Assembly: GCA_052327205.1 (NCBI GenBank)
Contig: CM126209.1
Location: 153,326,001 to 153,390,000, forward strand
Source of the DNA: Somniosus microcephalus
Lineage: Eukaryota
Reading direction: 5' to 3'
Length of the DNA: 64,000 nt
Shown here: positions 769 to 61,131 of the stretch, in pieces
How positions within the stretch are numbered: the first letter of the stretch is position 1
Layout: each line of letters starts with the position of its first letter
The notes under the pieces: generated by a model
Told to the model about the DNA's origin: nothing
Seen by the model: only the letters and a program-made list of their open reading frames with translations
Database searches by the model: none
Program-made: the position numbers and the translations under genes

Positions 769-2808
769 TAGAAACATAGAAACATAGAAGATAGGAGCAG
801 GAGTAGGCCATTCGGCCCTTCGAGCCTGCTCCGCCATTCAATGAGATCATGGCTGATCATCCAAATTCAGTACCCTGTCCCTGCCTTCTCCCCATATCCC
901 TTGATCCCTTTAGCCTTAAGAAATATATCCAACTCTTTCTTGAATATATTTAATGAACTGGCCTCCACCGCCCTCTGTGGCAGAGAATTCCACAGGTTCA
1001 CCACTCTCTCGGTGAAGAAATTCCTCCTCATTTCAGTCCTAAATGGCCTACCCCTTATCCTTAGATTATGACCCCTGGTTCTGGACTCCCCGACCATCGG
1101 GAACATCCTTCCAGCATCTAGTCTGTCCAGGCCTGACAGAATTTTATAGGTTTCGATGAGATCCCCTCTCAATCTTCTAAACTCCAGTGAGTATAAGCCC
1201 AATCGACACAATCTCTCCTCATACGTCATTCCTGCCATCCCAGGTATCAGCCTGGTGAATCTTCGCTGCACTCCTTCCATGGCAAGTACATCCTTCCTCA
1301 GATAAGGCGACCAAAGCTGCACACAATACTCAAGGTGCGGTCTCACCAAGGCCCTGTACAACTGTAGCAAGACATCCTTGTTCCTGTACTTGAACCCGCT
1401 TGCTATGAAGGCCAACATACTATTTGCCTTCCTAACCACCTGCTGCACCTGCATGCTTACCTTCAATGACTGGTGCACAAGAACACCCAGGTCTTTTGCA
1501 CTTCCCCTTCTCCCAATCTATTGCCATTCAAATAATAATCTGCCTTCCTGTTTTTGCCACCAAAGTGGATAACCTCACATTTATCCACATTATAATGTAT
1601 TTGCCATGTTTCTGCCCAATCACCTAACCTGTTCAAATCATACTGGAGTTTCATGACCTCCTCCTCACAGCATACCCTCCCACCCAGCTTTGTGTTGTCT
1701 GCAAATTTGGAGATATTACATCCAATTCCCTCGTCCAGATCATTAATATATATTGTGAACAGCTGGGGTCCTAGGACCGATCCTTGCGGTACCCCACTAG
1801 TCACTGCCTGCCACTCGGAAAATGACCCATTTATTCCAACTCTTTGCTTTCTGTCCGCCAACCAGTTCTCTATCCAAGTCAATACCTTGCCCCCAATCCC
1901 ATGTGCCTTAATTTTGCACACTAATCTCTTATGCGGGACCTTATCGAAAGCCTTCTGAAAGTCCAAATACACCACATCCACTGGTTCTCCCTTATCTATT
2001 TTACCAGTTACATCCTCAAAAAATTCCAGTAGATTAGTCAAGCATGATTTACCTTTTGTAAATCCATGTTGACTTTGTCCGATCCTGTCACTGCTTTCCA
2101 AGTGCTCTGCTATTACATCTTTTATAATGAACTCTAGCATTTTCCCTACTACCGATGTCAGGCTTACCGGTCTATAATTCCCCGCTTTTTCTCTGCCACC
2201 TTTTTTGAATAGTCGGGAAACATTAGCTACCCTCCAATCCATGGGTACTGTTTCAGAGTCTATCGAGTTCTGGAAGATGACCAGCAATGCATCTACTATT
2301 TCTAGGACCACTTCCTTAAGTACCCTGGGATGTAGATTATCAGGCCCTGGGGATTTATCGGCCTTCAGTCCCATCAATTTTCCTAACACCATTTCCCTAC
2401 AAATACTGATTTCTTTCAGTTCCACCCTTTTATCAGCCCCTATGTTCCCCGGCATTTCTGGGAGGTTATTTATGTCCTCCTTTGTGAAGACAGAACCAAA
2501 ATATGTATTTAGTTGGTCTGCCATTTCTTTGTTCCCCATTATAAATTCCCCGATTCTGACTGCAAGGGACCTACGCTTGACTTCACCAATCTTTTTCACT
2601 TCACATATCTATAAAAGCTTTTACAGTCAGTTTTTATGTTTCCTGCAAGCTTACTCTCATATTCTATTTTCCCTTTCTTCATTAATCCCTTTTTCCTCCT
2701 TTGTTGAATCCGAAACTGCTCCCAATCCTCAGGATTATTGCTTTTTCTGGCCAATTTGTATGTCCTCTCCTTGGATCTTATGCTATCCCTAATTTCCCTT
2801 GTTAGCCA
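769..2808 (-). mobile_element. Young 5'-truncated CR1 LINE with a nearly intact reverse transcriptase
   Basis: ORFs 1463..2599 and 867..1478 give CR1 RT motifs (NYRPVSLTSVVGK, YLDFQKAFDKVPH, GVPQGSVLGP, FADNTKL, RPHLEYCVQLW). One frameshift near 1495. (GAAACATA)n tail at 769-786. Confidence 0.95.
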
Positions 2809-4000
2809 AGAGACAGAGAGCTATAGGGCCATTATGAGATTCTGCAGGCAGATTTCAGAGTTCCAAGATATAGTTGAGGTTTTAAATGGTTACTATGCAT
2901 CAGTCTTTACCACTGATGATAATGCTGAGTTACCAGTACTGTTACGTAGAAGTGATGCACTTTTACACATTCAATTTTAGCATGCAGAATTAGCAAATTG
3001 GTCTGCTGGCTCTGATCGTATTCATGCTAGGGAGCTAAAAGAAGTAAGGGTGGCTATGTTATGTCAGCCACTGACGCGTATATTTAGCAGCTCATTGAGA
3101 GCTGGGATTGTATGATGGACTGAAGTGAGACCTGTAATAAGGGCAGTAAGTCAGAAAAAAGCAAGCAAGCTATAGACCCATTAATTTAACTTCAGTTAGA
3201 GGCAAGTTGCTATAAAGTATTATTAGAGATGCACTGTATGATCACCTAGATGGAGCAGAGGTTATTAGGGAATCCCAATTTGGCTTCTGGAAAAGGAGGT
3301 CCTGTCTCTCCAACTTGATCACATTCTTTGAAGAGGTTACAAAATTCATGGACGATGGAAGTCTGATCGATCTTGTTTTTCAAAATGTCTTTGATAAAAT
3401 GCCACACAAGATTTCTAAGATTGTGTCTCATGGGATTAGCAGGCAGATTTTAGGTTGGATAACTAATTTGTTGCATTTGTGTAGGCTGAGAATAATTGTT
3501 AATGATAACAGCTTTGTGTGGTGGTTGGATCCTAGTGGAGTCCTGCAGAGATTTATGTTCGGCCTGGTGCTTTTCATCTTATTAATGATCTGAATGAAAG
3601 CATCGGGCAAACAGTCCACAGGTTTGCTGAAGATTAGTGAGTTGGGACTGTCGACAAAACAAATAGTCTGCAGGTGGATCTAGATACAATGGAGGAATGG
3701 GCCCACATGTGGCAGGTATCTTTCAGTGTAGGCAAGTGACGTTTAATGTTTTTGGGTCCAGTAATAAGTGGCATGTATATGTCCTGCAAGATTGCCTACC
3801 CAAGGCTGAGGGGTATAGAAACACTGAAGGTGTTGCAAAGCTGTAACAAAAGCAAAAGGAGTGTTCGTGTTTAGCTAGGATAATTCAATATAAAACTAGA
3901 AGTACAATGCTTACCTTATACAAGGCCATGGTTTGGTTATATCTAGAACACTGTGCCCAATTTTGGTTTCCTCACAAGATATTGTATGACTGGGAGAGAG
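2809..4000 (+). mobile_element. Old, degraded CR1 LINE RT fragment
   Basis: VLNGYYASVFT (ORF 2738..2980) and FFEEVTK...VFDKMPH...SGVLQ (ORF 3315..3593), with many stops. Right boundary approximate. Confidence 0.8.
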
Positions 4001-4912
4001 AGGCTTGATGGTTCATGTAGATTGTATCAAACTGGAATAAGACACGCTTGTTAGTCTTTCCATAACTTATACTTACTTTCCTAGCTTTCAAAATATAGTT
4101 TTCTAACATTAGGCTTATACAGTGTAGTGAATTGGTTTTGGTACAATATTGCACTTAAATCAATGTAGCATTAGCATTATGCCTCTTATATGTGATGCTC
4201 TTAATTCATCTATATGGGACATGCAGCCTCAGAACTATTTGCTCACTCAAATTATTCCTGAAACAAACTTAAGAGTTAAATTCAGTTGCATTTGAACCTG
4301 TTTTTTGTTGCATAAAGATTAAAATTAGGGGTTGTAGCTGTTTTATGTGGTTACAATTACCTGAATCACATTTAAACAGACCCACAGAATCTGAAGTGTT
4401 ATGCCTGTAACATTTACATTTAGGATTTTAGCTTTTTATCTCTATTTTACATCATGTCTTGGCCGTGATACCCACTTGTGCATTCACTTGCCTGTAATCT
4501 CCACCCCCTTCAGTTTAATGGACCAGCCAATCCTGTTGGTGAGCATTCAAGTGGCAAACCCTTACTCTAATGTCTTACTTGTTAAGATGACTGTTCGACA
4601 TTGCGCATTCTCAGCATGTATTGCAACGGAACAAGCTTGTTGTGGTGAAACTATTCTCCAGGGACAAGTGAGAACATTTTTGCAAGGACCAAGTGCAAAT
4701 TATTAGAATAGTAATGATTTACCTTTGACCTTCAATGTTCAGGCTGCTTAGATTTCTAAATTGGCAATTCATTGTTTTGTACTGTTATGTAGTTACATTC
4801 TTAATGATAATTGTAAAACTCTCTTAATGGTGCTTGAGTTTTGCTGTTGGATAACTGTATAACTGCATGTTGCTTGTGGTGTTTTGAGTTTTTGTGTGTT
4901 TTTTTTGCTCAG

Positions 4913-5181
4913 GATTTTATGCTTGCTGCATCTTCCATTCCGAAGTACTCGTTTGACTCCAGCATGCCATTGAATAAGACAGCAAGACCATTTGGTGTTA
5001 CAACTACGGAAAGTTCAAACTCAGGGACACCAATAAAGTCAGTGAGCTACAAACCTGTATCCCTATATACTCCACCTTCTGCTTTGCCTAGTATCACACC
5101 CGCATCCCAGACACAACTAAAATATGGTTCAACCACAGAAAAACACAGCTCAACTGCATCCACACTGCAGCATCCGAATGG
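4913..5181 (+). CDS. PDLIM7: PDLIM7 internal exon, 269 nt, phase 0 to 2 (DFMLAASSIPKYSFDSSMPLNKTARPFG...HPNG)
   Basis: Pyrimidine tract and cag acceptor at 4910-4912, GG|gtatgt donor. LNKTARPFG motif typical of the Enigma family. Confidence 0.9.
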
Positions 5182-6831
5182 GTATGTCAAAACATGCTTT
5201 CAAACCTCTCTACGAAATATAGTCCTAATTAACTGCAGCTTCAAAATTGTTGTGCTGGAGAGGAAGATCTACTGCTAAGTTACAATTTACTGAGTGATTT
5301 ATTCAAAAAAATTCAATTTCTAGGAAATGAGATATTATCTGCTCAGGCATTTCAGCTGATGGGCAGAGTTCTTTCGGTCAAGCTACGTGCTTCGTTACTA
5401 CTGGATGAAATGTTAAGTACAACCAACTGGAATTAAAAACCACAGTGATTTAGCACTAGATTTTCCTCTCAAACGAGCACTGCCTTTATGAAAGGGTCTG
5501 TAAAACTTTTATTTGCACTCAATGTATTAATTTAAATTGCATCAAAATGCCTTCTGCATGATGCATGGCTGTTCAAACTCTTCCTAGTTTTCCAAACAAG
5601 GGAAACAGTTTTTCAAACATCTTGAAAGCTGTGCCCTTTTATATGAACAAAATGGTTCACTGTTCACTGCCACATGAATGTAACTTCACAATTTGCTTTT
5701 GCTTGATTTCACATTCATTTACCAAAAGATTTTGGTAGTTTAATTCACCAACTGGTGGTGGTGTTCTGCTTGGAATATTTGCATTTCAGAATGATGCAGA
5801 AGTCTCCAATTGATTGAACTATTTACCTTGGGTAATTATGTGTAGTACTTTAAAACGATTTCTGCACAAAATGAATGATGCTCGTTTTCTAAATTGTATT
5901 TTATACTTGATTAGCCCAAGGTGTTCTGGGTTTCTGACATGCCCTAATTTCATTTAGATTGTTGCTTGTTGATTAAGTGCATGCAACAGTATGGCATGAG
6001 GGTACTGTGTATGAGCTGTGGACTGGCTGTAGTAACATAGTGCCAGGTTGTGACACTTCCTTTTTAAGAAATTATAAATGAGCTTACTGGTCAGGGTCAT
6101 ATTATACAAGTGTGCAGTATTGAGTGCCCACACAGGCCCATACTTGGAAAGGCATATATTTATCTCTGCCTATATTAGGTCTCTTGAATGCTTACCTATT
6201 GCTCCAGTTCGCAAGCCTTGATGCTAGTATTTGTCAGGAAGATGTATGAGTGTGTACGTCCACTGCTGATGCAGAATATTGTCCTCGTGTCACTGAAACT
6301 CTAACTCTGGTCCAATAATTTTGATCAATTTAAAAATAAGCTTGCAGCCTACAGACCCTCACTGAGACGCACATGCAGAACTAAAACAGATGAGTTAATT
6401 ACATGCTAATTGATTTCAGTGAGCTTTTGTTAACCCTGTGTGTACTGAAGAAAGTGTTCTTCAAAATACCAAACTGCAAGCTTTCTAATTTAAATGGAGA
6501 AACTTGGTAACATGAGGGGTGGAATTTGTATTCGGCGACAATGCATAAGTCAATGGGAAAGAAAATCAGCTATCGCCCATATTGCACGACCACCAAAGAC
6601 CAATTTCACCCTGTGATTTGTGGCTCTTTACTTACCTGAAAACAATTCTGTAACATTGCATATTGTATTTTTGGAGTTGCGAACGCATTCAATACTAATG
6701 GGATTAGGTCTCGGTACTGCTGATGTTTGTCGGTTTTAAAGTTACAGGAGGGTTACCTATGTTGTATTTTATTCTATAAAAATTGTCAATAAATGGAGTA
6801 TTGTAATGGTAGAAATATGATGAGGGATATT

Positions 6832-55821: not shown

Positions 55822-56310
55822 AGGCTGAATTTTAGCACACAAAAACAGATGGGTTGGGTTCAGGTCAGATATTTAAATTTAAAAAATCTGGACCCCAACC
55901 CAACCCGCCTCCAACCTGCCCAGTTCCGGGTTTTATGGAGGTGGGACAAGGGACGGGCAGTCAACCTGCTCCCAGGTGATGGGTTGGCAATTTAAATATT
56001 TTAATGAGGTTGGCAGCCTCTGATTTCACTTGCTTTACAGGATTAACTGTGGCTGGCTGGGTTTCCCAGGCTTCGGGAAACCAGGCAGCTAAAGTGAGGG
56101 AGGACAGCTTCGGGGAGAAGCTATGTGCCTTCACAGCACTGCTTGTGGGCCTAGGAGGACCAGGAGCCGCTGCCCCATGAGACCCCCATCCCGTACAAAG
56201 GTCGGGGATTGGACTCCCCTCGGGGATCAGAGACCCGCCCATCCCCCACCTTAAAACTCCCCAACATGCCCCTGCTGCTTACATAAATCACCCCTGTTAA
56301 TATCCAGGCC
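55822..56310. mobile_element. Harbinger-like MITE nested in the L2
   Basis: Imperfect ends AGGCTGAATTTTA / TAATATCCAGGCC and 3-bp TSD ACA. L2 sequence resumes afterwards. Confidence 0.6.
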
Positions 56311-57655
56311 ACAATCTCCTTCAATAAAACATTGGGAAGACTGAAGCCATCATCTTCAGCTCTCGCCACAAACTCCGTACCCTCATTACTGATTCCAAAC
56401 ATCTTTGTGGCCGTTGTCTCAGGACGAACCAGAATGTTTGTTTATAATCTTGACATCCTATTCCACACTGCCTAAGCTTCCAACCTCATGTATTCCCCAT
56501 TACAAAGACCTCCATCTCGGTAACATCATCCGCTTGCGCCCCTGCCTCAACCCATCTTCTGCTGAAACCCTCATACATTCCTTTGTGACTTCCAGACTTG
56601 ACTATTTGAATGAATGCTCTCCTAGCTGGCCGCCCATTCTGCGCTCTCTTAAAAACTTAAGCTCAACCAAAACTCTGTTGACCAAATCTTGTCCTGCAAG
56701 TCCCGTTTGCCCATCACCCCTATCCTGCTGACCTACTCCTCAAATTTAAAATTCTCATCCCTATCCTTGTTACTTCCTTCAACTCTAACCTCCTTCCTCC
56801 CCCCCCCCCCCCTTACAGTTCTCGATTCCTCTGACTGGCGTTTTGTGTATACCTTGCACCCCCCCTCCCTTTACATCACCAACGGTGGCTGTGCCTTCAG
56901 TCACCTAGGCCTCACTCTGAAATTTCATTGCTAAACCCCTCCGCCTTTCCACTTCCATCTCCTCCTTTTAAGACCCTCCTTAAAACCCACCTCTTTGACC
57001 AAACTTTTAGTCACCTTTCCTAATATGTCCTTTGTCTCAGCATCCATTTTTGTCTGATTACGCCTCAACGAAGGCCCAATATAAATGCAAGTTGTTATCA
57101 TAATTTCTAAAAGTTGAATTAATTTGTTTAATTGGTGAAGTATTTCTTTTTTTTTCATCCAGTTGTGATGACCATAAGTTTTGGGAGAGAGGGTTCTTTG
57201 CCATTTCCCAGATCATCACTTGAGGGGGAGAAAGGTGGTCTTCAAAGCCTCATTCTTTCATCTGTTTGGCATTCTATTTTTGAAATTGGCTAGGACACTT
57301 GATGTGTTAAAATATGTAAAAGCGGAAAAATTGATTTTGTCCTGGGATGTTACCCTATAAAGGTAGATATATCTGTGGCACTAAGATGTACTTATCTGCC
57401 TTAACACAAACAGCCAAGGGACAGATATGTGACTCGCAAATATCTCTTCAGTTGTACAGCTGTGTAAATTTATACAACTGACTTAATAATGCTTGGGTAT
57501 ATGAACAAATCAGCTTAATGACTGCAGCAGAAAAATCTGTTTTATAAATGTGAACTTTTCTCTATACAGAAGGGGTGCTGTTGTCATCATACCACACCAG
57601 TTAGAAAAATCAAGATTAACATTGCCTGATGTTTGACTTTGCTCCTTTTGTTTAG

Positions 57656-57836
57656 AGGTCGCTATCTTGTAGCTTTGGGCCGTTCTTGGCATCCTGAAGA
57701 GTTTACTTGCAATCAGTGCAAAATGACCTTGACTGAGGGAGGATTCTTTGAGGAACAGGGCTCTGTGTTCTGTGGAAAATGCTATGAAAACAAGCATGCT
57801 CCCAATTGTGCCAAATGCAAACAGAAGATTATAGGC
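57656..57836 (+). CDS. PDLIM7: PDLIM7 LIM1/LIM2 exon, 181 nt
   Basis: [21 protein letters not shown]...[23 protein letters not shown]. tttag acceptor, gtgagt donor, phase 2 to 0. Confidence 0.97.
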
Positions 57837-57949
57837 GTGAGTAATATTGTACATTTGTAGCTTTAAATACATAAATGATTTGTATAAAGAAAGCCAATTT
57901 GTGAACCAAAAAATATATGCATAGCCTTTAAAATATTCATCAGAAGCGC

Positions 57950-58335
57950 TTTCTCTGGAGTTTAGAAGAATGAGATGTCTTGACAGGGTAGCTGCTGGGA
58001 GGATATTTCCCCTGGCTGGGGAGTCTAGAACCAGGGGCCACAGTCTCAGAATAAGGGGTCGGCCATTTAGGACTGAGAGGAGGAGGAGAAATTTCTTCAC
58101 TCAGAGGGTGGTGAATCTTTGGAATTCTCTACCCCAGAGGGCTGCGGATGCTCAGTCGTTGAGTATATTCAAGACAGAAACCGATACATTTTTGGATATT
58201 AAGGGAATCAATGGATATGGGGGTAGTGCAGGAAAGTGAAGTTGAGGTAGAAGATCAGCCATGATCTTATTGAATGGCGGGGCAGGCTCGAGGGGCCGAA
58301 TGGCCTACTCCTGCTCCTATTTCTTATGTTCTTAT
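57950..58335 (+). mobile_element. CR1 LINE 3' fragment
   Basis: ESRTRGHSLRIRGRPFRTE...FTQRVVNLWNSLPQ and a (TTCTTATG) tail. Confidence 0.9.
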
Positions 58336-58373
58336 TTAAGTGGAAAGCCAGGTAGATGGATCCAAGTCTATTA

Positions 58374-58719
58374 CAGGTTGGACCCCGGTAATCCGGCACC
58401 CTCGGGACCAGGCCGGTGCCGGACCATTGAAAATTCCGAACCACTGAATGTGTCGAAAGTCACCACAAACACCGCCACCACCTGCTCCTCCTCTTCCTGC
58501 TGCTGCCCTCCCTGTGCCGCCCACGGGCTGCTCGGGCTCCATCGCTCCGCCGAGCCGTCGGTGATTCTGCGCGGTCCAGGCGCTGATCCTGACCCGGTGG
58601 CGGTCCCGGGACCCGAGCCGGACCCATCCCAGGGAGGGAATGTGACAGCAGGACCTTCCTCGCGCCAGACCACTGAAGGTGCCGGACCGTCGGGTGCCGG
58701 ATTACCGGGGTTCAACCTG
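58374..58719. mobile_element. Tc1/mariner-pogo-type MITE with captured host sequence (Pack-TIR-like)
   Basis: 28-bp TIRs CAGGTTG(G/A)ACCCCGGTAATCCGGCACCC with one mismatch. TA on both sides (58372-58373 and 58720-58721). Confidence 0.9.
58449..58655 (-). pseudogene. DENND11: Captured fragment resembling the first coding exon of DENND11 (LCHN/KIAA1147)
   Basis: Open minus-strand frame ending QQQEEEEQVVAVFVVTFDT matches the recalled DENND11 motif EEDQVVAVFVVTFDPRSGN. Preceded by low-complexity G/S/P-rich sequence. The match is short. Confidence 0.7.
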
Positions 58720-59601
58720 TATCATGTTTGTTCATTCTCTTAATAGAAGGTTGAATACGCACAGAAGAGTAGCTCTTCTAGATTGAGAATGAGAAACTTT
58801 AAATTGAAAACAAGATATAGGCAAGTTCACCTGGTAATTATCAAATTTAAAAGAATAAACAGTGATGCAATCAATGAACTGTAGATCCGTAGTGTCATTG
58901 ATTTTTGTCTGCTGCAGTAAATGTTGACTAAACAGCAAAATATTGCAATGAAAGGGGTCTTTGTAGCCCAGTAGGTTCTCTATCATTTCACATCTGAGAC
59001 ATCCATCCTTTACTGCTTGGAGAGTCTTTGGTTTGACTGCATGAGTCGTATGTGGAAAAGGGTTTGGGGAATGTCGATCAAACTTCTATTAGGAACAGCG
59101 AAGCAAGAATAGTTTCTATGGGGAAAATACCACACTAATGTCATGGGGCAAATGTACATTGGAAGGACAGAGAAAAAAGAGCTTTACTTTGTACCTGGCT
59201 CAAGCTATACATGGCCTGGGAGTGCTTAATGTCTAAAATAGGAAATTACTTAATTCACCATTACTAACAACCCTCACCTTTTTTGACCTTACAAAAGTCA
59301 AAAGGCAAATGTGGAGCTGTGGTATAAATTTTCACAGTGGCCTAACATAGCCATATTTAATCATTATCATCAAACATGGCTGTACTTGAACTTAGTTTAC
59401 CCCAAAGTGGTGTCAAGAGGCCCACTGCTAATAGATTTTGTTAGATATCTAGATTATTTATCCTAGCCATGTCTAAACAAATATAGTCATTGAATTACTT
59501 GAAGTTAGCTTGTGTGCTAAATTGGCTGAAAAACAAAAAATATATATTTTTCAAAGTGTGAGTTTTCTCTCTCAAAACTAACTTGCATTTCCTGTTTATA
59601 G

Positions 59602-59722
59602 GAAATTATGCATGCCTTGAAGCAGACATGGCATGTTAAGTGCTTTAATTGTGCTGCATGTAAAACCCCCATCCGCAACAAAGCATTTTACATGGAGGAA
59701 GGTCAACCCTACTGTGAGAAAG
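59602..59722 (+). CDS. PDLIM7: PDLIM7 LIM2 exon, 121 nt
   Basis: [40 protein letters not shown]. tag acceptor, G|gtaata donor, phase 0 to 1. Confidence 0.97.
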
Positions 59723-61131
59723 GTAATAGATTATGTACTACAGAAGAATTTGAGAATACTGTCTGGTAAACATGTGCTTGGTCAAAGTTGTATTCGTCAT
59801 CCTTAAGACTAAAGTAACTTTTTGCACAAAAATCAAATGTGTAACTCAATACAGTACATTAATTTAAAAACATTTATTCGCAGACCATTTTAAATGAAGT
59901 TATGGATCTAAACATTCTTGCATATTCATAATATTAAAATTCATTTTGGTAGTATACAGTAACAACTATTTAGAAACTCTGGCAACCAATGTAACATTTA
60001 TACTGTCATCTCATCATTTGTTACAAATCCAATCTAGCCAGCTACCCTTTGAACATGAAGACAAATGGTCTAAAGGCAGTAATGTTTTTCTAAGTCTAAA
60101 ACATGAAGAATAGCAGCAATATACGGTTTAAATGACTGAAAACTCATCTACACAGTAGCATTGTGTCTTTCTAGTCAGAAAAGAATAATTTAGCATGTAA
60201 CCACAAAAGTTCAAAGGCTTGGCTATAAAGTTAATATTACTTGCTCAAAGAAATAATTTGTGGTGAAAGTTTTTTATATTAACAAATCTTTTATATTAGC
60301 ACTGATGGTGAATCAAAAGATTTGCGGTTTTATAACAATAGGAGTGTTTATGCATTTAGGGGATAACCTCACAGCCATTCATTTACAGTGACTGAATAAG
60401 TCATTTTTACTTAAGTGGTAGTCTGAGACATTTTAATGGTGCTTTTGGGCACTGGATTCCATAACTCTGTCCACTTATTCTATGAAAACAGTAAATGAGA
60501 TTTTTTAATATTTATTTATAAAATGTTTGGAGAATATCATTATAAAGGTTGACATTAAAATGTTACAGGAGCTATGCAAGATTTTTAATACATAGATATG
60601 TTTTGTCTTTAAGGAGAAAAAAAATTGAATTTTTATTTTGGGCAGAGTTTTATGTTTGAGCATGTATGACACCAGTTATTGTTACTTGCATGAATATGAA
60701 ATTAAATGGAAAAAGTATGTAACCCTTTTTCAAGAAAAGAAAATCTACATAAATTATCTTCACTATATATGCAAAGGTCCAGAGTTTTGTGTGTTCATCT
60801 GCTTTCCTTTCCTTTTTTCTTCCTATTTTGCCAATTCTGATATTCCTCAGTGGGATGCTATATCTGTCTGACCTTTAGTTAATCAAAAATTCTATTGCAA
60901 CATTTTTGTGTTCTCTTAAAATATGATCCTGGCAAACCTTTTGGCAAATTTGCAAGAGAATCTAAATTCAGAGTTCCCACCTTTTCGATTTGTGGTTGGT
61001 TTTAATTAGGACTGTCTCAGATAATTGGGTTGGATGGACTCCGTGGGGGGTGAGATTATTCTTGGGAGGTAACGCAGAATGGGAGATAGGTAATTGGTAG
61101 TCCATTTTACACTCAATCTGATTTTCTTTTC

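Follow-up and report, generated by a model that had tools for sequence, protein, structure and literature searches.

For the 346-bp element at 58374..58719 of the window (the whole DNA stretch of 64,000 nucleotides that was analysed), we favor, with a probability of roughly 80%, the reading that it is a non-autonomous Tigger/pogo transposon containing a piece of DENND11 exon 1, which was likely acquired by microhomology-guided template switching, has likely been spread to about 200 sites by the transposase of its parent and is likely without function.

The near-perfect 28-bp TIRs and the TA duplication, already described in the earlier note, were recovered with one mismatch (27/28 matches) and TA on both sides (Table 1). 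Together with the flanking TA, the TIRs form 30-nt arms which are 97% complementary. TA target duplication and short TIRs are those of Tigger/pogo (Tc1/mariner) elements, and a length of about 325-380 bp, about 200 copies, the lack of a start codon before the cargo, TIRs with TSD and a partner family make the element a MITE. The interior is CpG-rich, as had been noted, with a GC content of 71-73% and 10-12 CpG per 100 nt, compared to 0-3 CpG per 100-nt bin in the surroundings (56001-58400, 58701-61000). On the minus strand, a frame of 114 aa is open from TIR to TIR (58718-58377); it includes the peptide motif from which DENND11 had been suggested and contains no Met upstream of the cargo. The frame had been described as ending at this motif, but only the homology to DENND11 stops there, while the frame continues for 27 residues through the left end of the element. 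Similarly, cargo was found in the proposed span 58449-58655, but its real edge lies at 58662/58663. A Pfam scan of the two long frames of the element yielded 0 families. Relative to the family consensus, the window copy carries two deletions of 15 and 6 nt.

Table 1. Features of the element and of the surrounding PDLIM7 gene (positions in the window)
Feature	Position	Strand	Basis
PDLIM7 LIM-domain exon upstream of element, 5' edge approximate	57657..57836	+	Pfam LIM; 93-98% identity to shark/ray PDLIM7
PDLIM7 intron with element	57837..59601	+	GT at 57837; flanking exons consecutive in tblastn with P0039
TA target-site duplication, left copy	58372..58373	.	single TA at empty site in organism C
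Left TIR, 28 bp, 3' end of parent Tigger/pogo	58374..58401	+	same as end of 2394-bp parent L145
Left subterminal part of parent	58402..58448	+	parent's end matched in register up to junction
DENND11 coding exon 1 fragment (cargo)	58449..58663	-	homology to native exon
Right subterminal part, 5' end of parent	58664..58691	+	parent match
Right TIR, 28 bp	58692..58719	-	pairs with left TIR
TA target-site duplication, right copy	58720..58721	.	sequence; empty site in organism C
Next PDLIM7 LIM-domain exon, 3' edge approximate	59602..59721	+	Pfam; tblastn
Further PDLIM7 LIM exon	from 61656	+	Pfam LIM

The search with the interior led to C16:52397293-52397521 (minus strand), 11 kb upstream of three exons of the DENND11 gene matched by Pfam PF09804 (C16:52375475-52385923, minus strand). 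Downstream of this native exon 1, which is CpG-rich and has its ATG and GT donor 268 nt apart, eight further DENND11 exons were found. In the gene, the captured stretch has a length of 233 bp and extends from 28 nt downstream of the ATG to 7 nt upstream of the GT donor; it comprises about codons 10-87 of 89, without start codon or splice donor. Between the window copy and the native exon there are 211 identities in 231 positions, with 2 substitutions and 18 gap positions (E 3e-94, 50-kb locus), values that exclude a chance match. Hence, the proposal that the interior is a DENND11 exon fragment was borne out by recovery of the native first exon, and the match reaches well beyond a chance short peptide. 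Between the consensus derived from 75 copies and the native exon there are 0 substitutions in 232 nt, the one difference being an extra 3-nt repeat unit. On the protein level, the 89-aa product of exon 1 matched 13 proteins, all of them named DENND11; the exon is conserved, and the motif is invariant in all seven aligned shark/ray DENND11 proteins. This motif, which the earlier note took for the beginning of the DENN domain, precedes the Pfam DENND11 model, whose first match is exon 2, and the native exon 1 itself gave no Pfam match. Since this applies to the frames of the element as well, the identity of the cargo rests on DNA and protein homology. A GC- and CpG-rich, tandem-like stretch of about 3 kb directly follows exon 1 in DENND11 intron 1 (L049:about 2000-5200).

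The ends of the element belong to a larger transposon. Full-length parents of 2.3-2.4 kb (e.g. L145 with 2394 bp, and L144) have the same ends, of which the Pack form keeps about 80 bp on one side and about 60 bp on the other. L144 encodes CENP-B_N, HTH_Tnp_Tc5 and DDE_1, and the best named transposase matches were 'jerky homolog' and 'TIGD2-like' (75-80% identity). The capture of a gene fragment by a TA-target TIR element, as proposed in the earlier note, is thus supported, with DENND11 exon 1 between the two ends of one parent. An intact parent transposase was not found among 150 scored matches, of which 12 were 88-100% identical; the longest frame has 462 aa and ends at a stop. Nor did a simple cargo-free junction pattern give any match; the parent has 2.25 kb at that place. 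Coelacanth and lobster proteins share 78-80% identity with the transposase, and in other species annotated proteins (P0135, P0147, P0169) join such a transposase to host domains (GTF2I-like, TBC1D4-like, TOM1L2), combinations that are either real fusions or annotation artefacts. There is also another Tigger/pogo family with different TIRs and an identity of about 60% over the DDE region (e.g. L248:481-3538, L249:644-2957), in which many copies have an open frame of 605 aa and equal scores. It looks very young and is possibly active. Cross-mobilisation by this intact family is not supported, as the TIRs have only the first few bases in common.

A search with the exact 27-nt end motif revealed 117 matches in the genome. 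Among the 100 matches listed, 87 were classified by a script, while the other 13 were assigned to DENND11 by coordinates. The script-classified matches comprised 46 elements with DENND11, five with DENND11 and OSTM1, 20 parents or plain deletion derivatives, 11 elements of type C, four of type D and one consisting of ends only. In total, 64 of the 100 listed matches carry DENND11, as against 21 cargo-free forms, an excess which under neutrality can be explained only as chance founder success.

With a 29-nt cargo motif (up to 2 mismatches), 202 genome matches including the gene were obtained, while the reversed control gave 0. Given the decay of the motif, this number is a lower bound, and a few pairs in it are segmental or assembly duplicates with common flanks (e.g. 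L002/L003, L024/L025). The size of the family, like the parent transposon and the second captured gene, had escaped the earlier note. Among the fetched loci, 105 full-length matches were reduced to 75 with distinct flanks, a set that is not random since best-hit and exact-motif searches favor little-decayed copies. TA was present at both ends in 68 of these 75 copies. The family consensus measures 371 bp including both TA, and the copies diverge from it by a median of 3.0% (range 1.1-6.4%). The closest pair is 2.3% apart, and the copies form a star-like tree that contains two end variants and in which no founder copy stands out. These TIR-end variants form clades of 27 and 48 copies; some copies have one of each, which points to conversion of ends or to recombination among the copies. 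The rate of change is 3.3 times higher at CpG sites than elsewhere; of 409 changes at CpG sites, 384 are transitions, the pattern that methylated DNA would be expected to show. A coding function of the cargo was considered and rejected, as distinct alleles give an N/S ratio of 0.88, which becomes 0.93 when CpG sites are left out. A frame of at least 100 aa is kept in 56 of the 75 copies and the length modulo 3 in 50, but these frames were not taken as a sign of selection because the observed indels occur within repeats of 3 and 6 nt. The copies thus decay neutrally with CpG loss.

Comparison with relatives allowed the capture to be placed in time. In organism C (run X4), a contig joins the right flank to the left flank through a single TA, which is the empty site that the earlier note had suggested looking for. 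Cargo was found on one contig each in organisms C and D (X9), with 14-15 differences, and in organism C the loose ends of this contig continue as the native gene. Contigs of relatives show presence and not absence; nevertheless, the single cargo contigs in C and D together with the empty site in C indicate that the capture took place after the split from both. Organism D probably lacks this insertion, too, since its right-flank contig continues with 41 letters unlike the element. In organism B (X2), many cargo contigs were detected; its right-flank contig begins inside the TIR with 24 letters, short of the bridging threshold. The family is the product of a burst that followed the split from C and D and has since ended. 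The capture had been called recent, which is correct in relation to this split, but less so in view of a closest pair that already differs by 2.3% and of the star-like tree. Element ends without this cargo reach very high depth in organism D, while none were seen in organism C. Organism C has more words in common with the window than D (0.35 vs 0.29), and yet it is D that possesses the ends. This patchy presence across relatives may be due to horizontal transfer or loss.

DENND11 was not the only sequence taken up. At least four separate captures were seen, two of them from GC-rich first exons on other contigs. The OSTM1 gene is located on C9, and there are six dispersed matches to its first exon (Pfam PF09777). 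Five census copies carry 160 bp of the OSTM1 exon 1 region with 92-97.5% identity to the native locus, and an alignment showed that L088 and L147 contain the same insert. It is situated at the left junction, where it takes the place of the final 8 nt of the DENND11 piece and shows a 2-nt microhomology; its other side is joined via an end motif of the element that has been duplicated locally. Junctions with local duplications are typical of template switching. As the right DENND11 junction is unchanged and 8 nt of the piece were trimmed, OSTM1 came second. In the type C subfamily (e.g. the L060 element, C1:442227948-442228302; more than 20 near-full copies), the ends enclose 137 bp that were found once without element ends (C7:277404595; L234:1996-2132), joined to two parts of a very common repeat. 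By eye, no gene was recognised in 16 short frames of this 137-bp source. Type D elements (about 20 copies; L116:190-528, C13:182762172) enclose part of an older repeat between the same ends, and RNA reads of this type were present in run X22.

The junctions of the DENND11 piece with the parent exhibit microhomologies of 3 nt and 4 nt, which in the window copy lie at 58449-58451 and 58660-58663 and contain one private substitution each; both are short. A sum of at least 7 was reached by 0.38% of 100,000 random junction pairs, a chance test that used one present-day parent copy, from which the parent at capture may differ. On this basis, the element probably arose when a break in the parent or in a short derivative was repaired from an unlinked GC-rich first exon, the DENND11 piece being pasted in by microhomology-guided template switching during DNA repair. 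The product would have kept the 80-bp and 60-bp ends needed in cis, would have been copied in one burst while the transposase of the parent was active, and its copies would have become methylated afterwards. Repair of an excision gap, repair of an internal break and fork switching cannot be told apart.

A more far-reaching interpretation is that the family acts as a serial exon-capturing vehicle of the plant Pack-MULE type, in which the CpG-island first exons of two genes helped the cargo form to spread more widely than its cargo-free siblings and 200 copies feed antisense or piRNA pressure on DENND11 and OSTM1. We regard it as unlikely; if true, such a transposon-host conflict would be undescribed for vertebrate cut-and-paste elements in the literature searched.

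Any regulatory role has to be considered separately for the window copy and for the family. Six PDLIM7 exons were ordered across the window by tblastn with a shark/ray PDLIM7 protein as query, and the matched homologues mark the genome as that of a shark. The LIM exons lie on the plus strand and the cargo on the minus strand; hence the cargo is antisense to its host gene, exactly as the earlier note had stated. A special meaning of this position is not supported; the copy is one of about 200 dispersed ones. Of the proposed TIR-closed RNA loop, the TIR stem does close in the fold, but the GC-rich cargo also folds on itself. The PDLIM7 copy is one ordinary intronic insertion, and antisense regulation from it is unsupported. 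Just left of the element, at about 57970-58335, the window contains a very high-copy repeat with a short tandem tail that resembles the 3' terminus of a shark LINE or SINE.

Two RNA runs of organism B, X21 and X22, were searched to 24% and 31%, respectively. Neither contained reads on 58736-58900, the right flank of the window copy, which is weak evidence; in X21 the PDLIM7 exons also had zero depth, and this may reflect the tissue or the read filter. Reads crossing the junction between end and cargo were present in both runs. In X21, six such reads were found on one strand and two on the other, while in X22 it was 36 versus one, with 14 start places. Of the X22 reads, 18 carry a flank that maps once in the genome (C12:121996280), at the cargo-bearing copy C12:121996294. 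The latter is thus transcribed with a strong strand bias, and the family is not wholly silent. By the usual stranded convention, for a library whose polarity is uncalibrated, the X22 RNA is probably antisense to DENND11. The transcribed copy (L227/L231) sits between LTR retrotransposons, one of which, 0.7-5 kb to the right, has an open frame of 1271 aa with protease, RT, RNase H and integrase. In the search for its host gene, 125 of 319 frames of at least 62 aa in 60 kb were scanned, and only retrotransposon domains were found. It is conceivable that, with the same origin of the element, antisense or small RNAs of transcribed copies lower DENND11 (and OSTM1), with or without a contribution of the PDLIM7 copy. 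The strand ratio in X22 and the reads from the flank of a single cargo-bearing copy agree with this idea, as do the copies themselves, which are still about 97% like the mRNA; for Pack-TIRs, sense/antisense regulation has been raised as a possibility (PMC8277862). On the other hand, the polarity of the library is uncalibrated, the window copy's flank gave no reads in either run, and the low read depth and the location among LTR retrotransposons with no host gene found fit read-through. Moreover, the copies decay neutrally, and the native exon has kept all 24 CpGs of the captured stretch, while the copies lost theirs; there is thus no sign of methylation spreading, although coding constraint on the exon weakens this point. 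On these data, a regulatory role stays conceivable for the family, though not for the PDLIM7 copy, but we consider it quite unlikely.

With respect to the capture itself, the template could have been RNA (mRNA or nascent) copied into a broken element instead of DNA. The DENND11 piece is purely exonic and both gene pieces are in the sense of the transposase frame. Being wholly inside one exon, the piece cannot by itself distinguish between a DNA and an RNA template, and two of two pieces in one orientation are expected one time in two. Neither an exon-exon junction nor poly(A) was found, and another filler is apparently single-copy DNA without a recognised gene. More telling is the OSTM1 piece, which extends about 36 nt past the best phase-0 donor and so probably includes intron; this donor, derived from sequence and frame, fits a candidate exon 2 in phase. 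For the OSTM1 piece, a DNA template is accordingly suggested by the sequence, and we judge copying of the DENND11 piece from RNA to be very unlikely.

Composite transposition, for which two flanking elements would have carried off the intervening DNA, has been described for plant Pack-TYPE elements (PMC8903248), and bypass of an element end is likewise a described route (PMC8277862). Both are, however, difficult to reconcile with the locus. Neither ends nor remnants of the element were detected in the 50 kb of the DENND11 locus examined, where the cargo alone matches. The arms correspond to the two opposite ends of one parent, left and right, both of them cut within the subterminal part, and the junctions show microhomology without inner TA or inner TIR. 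Furthermore, elements landing in the coding exon would have disrupted a conserved gene. Composite transposition or transduction is therefore largely refuted and highly improbable. That the direction was the reverse and the first exon was built from the transposon is practically negligible: consensus and exon are identical at all 232 compared sites, but sharks and rays have conserved the protein of the exon, in organisms C and D the exon is present as a single contig and there is no cargo-bearing family, and the parent transposon has no such sequence.

By structural definition, the shark family is a Pack-TIR. The internal non-TE sequence falls within the range of 100-5000 bp. At thresholds of at least 90% identity and 80-120% length, a parental copy exists (213 vs 231 nt, 2 substitutions), and no element was found to flank it in the 50 kb of the locus examined. 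Both arms are the two termini of one TIR element (L145/L144). The cargo is not an intronless retroduplicate, as it has no exon-exon junction and lies inside exon 1, and the 75 copies with distinct flanks occupy unlinked sites with their own TSDs. What animal Pack-TIRs and this family have in common is about 200-300 bp of host sequence between the ends of one TIR element, an unlinked source without element ends, breakpoint microhomology, distinct TSDs and GC-rich cargo (PMC8277862). TcMariner elements, including a Pack-Tigger1 case, are among those surveyed (PMC8277862). In that survey of 100 animal genomes, gene capture by TIR elements was mostly single-copy and independent of transposition; microhomology at the breakpoints occurred in 67.6% of cases, and GC-rich cargo was reported for the multicopy ones (PMC8277862). 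There were four multicopy cases (1.4%), with main-text examples of 3-5 copies compared to about 200 here, and a serial capture of two genes, as in the shark, does not appear in the main text as examined, nor does the word 'shark' occur in it (PMC8277862). The survey pipeline requires a unique top hit for the cargo (PMC8277862). For the window copy, at least 14 sibling copies outscore the native exon; the family would thus likely be missed by this pipeline, which is a matter of the detection filter and not of biology.

Plant Pack-TYPE elements (Pack-Mariner, Pack-MULE) are also non-autonomous TIR elements with gene fragments, those of Mariner type having a TA TSD (PMC8903248). Cargo assembled from several loci, as in 19% of rice Pack-Mariners, its stepwise extension and clusters of more than 100 elements in maize hAT and PIF are described in the portion of this work considered here, where Pack-Mariners, unlike the shark family, are mostly low copy (PMC8903248). 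The same source proposes capture via mobilised neighbouring insertions, a model which the shark junctions do not fit (PMC8903248). The Helitrons of vesper bats resemble the family in being vertebrate elements with a bias for 5' ends or first exons, higher copy numbers and serial capture of a second gene (PMC4224331). They differ, according to the sections of that paper used, in their rolling-circle mode and other capture mechanism, in the lack of TIRs and TA duplication, and in a total of thousands of copies (PMC4224331). The TA target, the short TIRs, the combination of CENP-B_N, HTH_Tnp_Tc5 and DDE_1 and the plain deletion derivatives correspond to Tigger/pogo (Jerky/TIGD2-like) transposons and their MITEs; unlike in usual Tigger/pogo MITEs, the commonest derivative here has a host coding exon instead of transposon sequence inside. 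In the literature searched, which covered few subscription papers, no report on a captured-gene Tigger MITE or on such a shark family was found. Most likely, the family is an unusually amplified, serially capturing form of the known Pack-TIR kind and a neutral passenger of the genome.

The family displays plant-like behaviour in a vertebrate, with about 200 copies of an exon piece, a second gene taken up afterwards and at least two further fillers between these ends. Given the unique-hit filter of the survey as it is described there, the rarity of multicopy families may be partly a detection effect (PMC8277862). With the source, the parent, the junctions, the sequence of events and outgroups established, a clean case for the capture mechanism is available. 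In this lineage, the copies will complicate the mapping of reads to DENND11 and OSTM1 as well as the annotation of both genes. At the same time, the family lends itself to testing whether small RNAs from scattered exon copies act back on their source gene.
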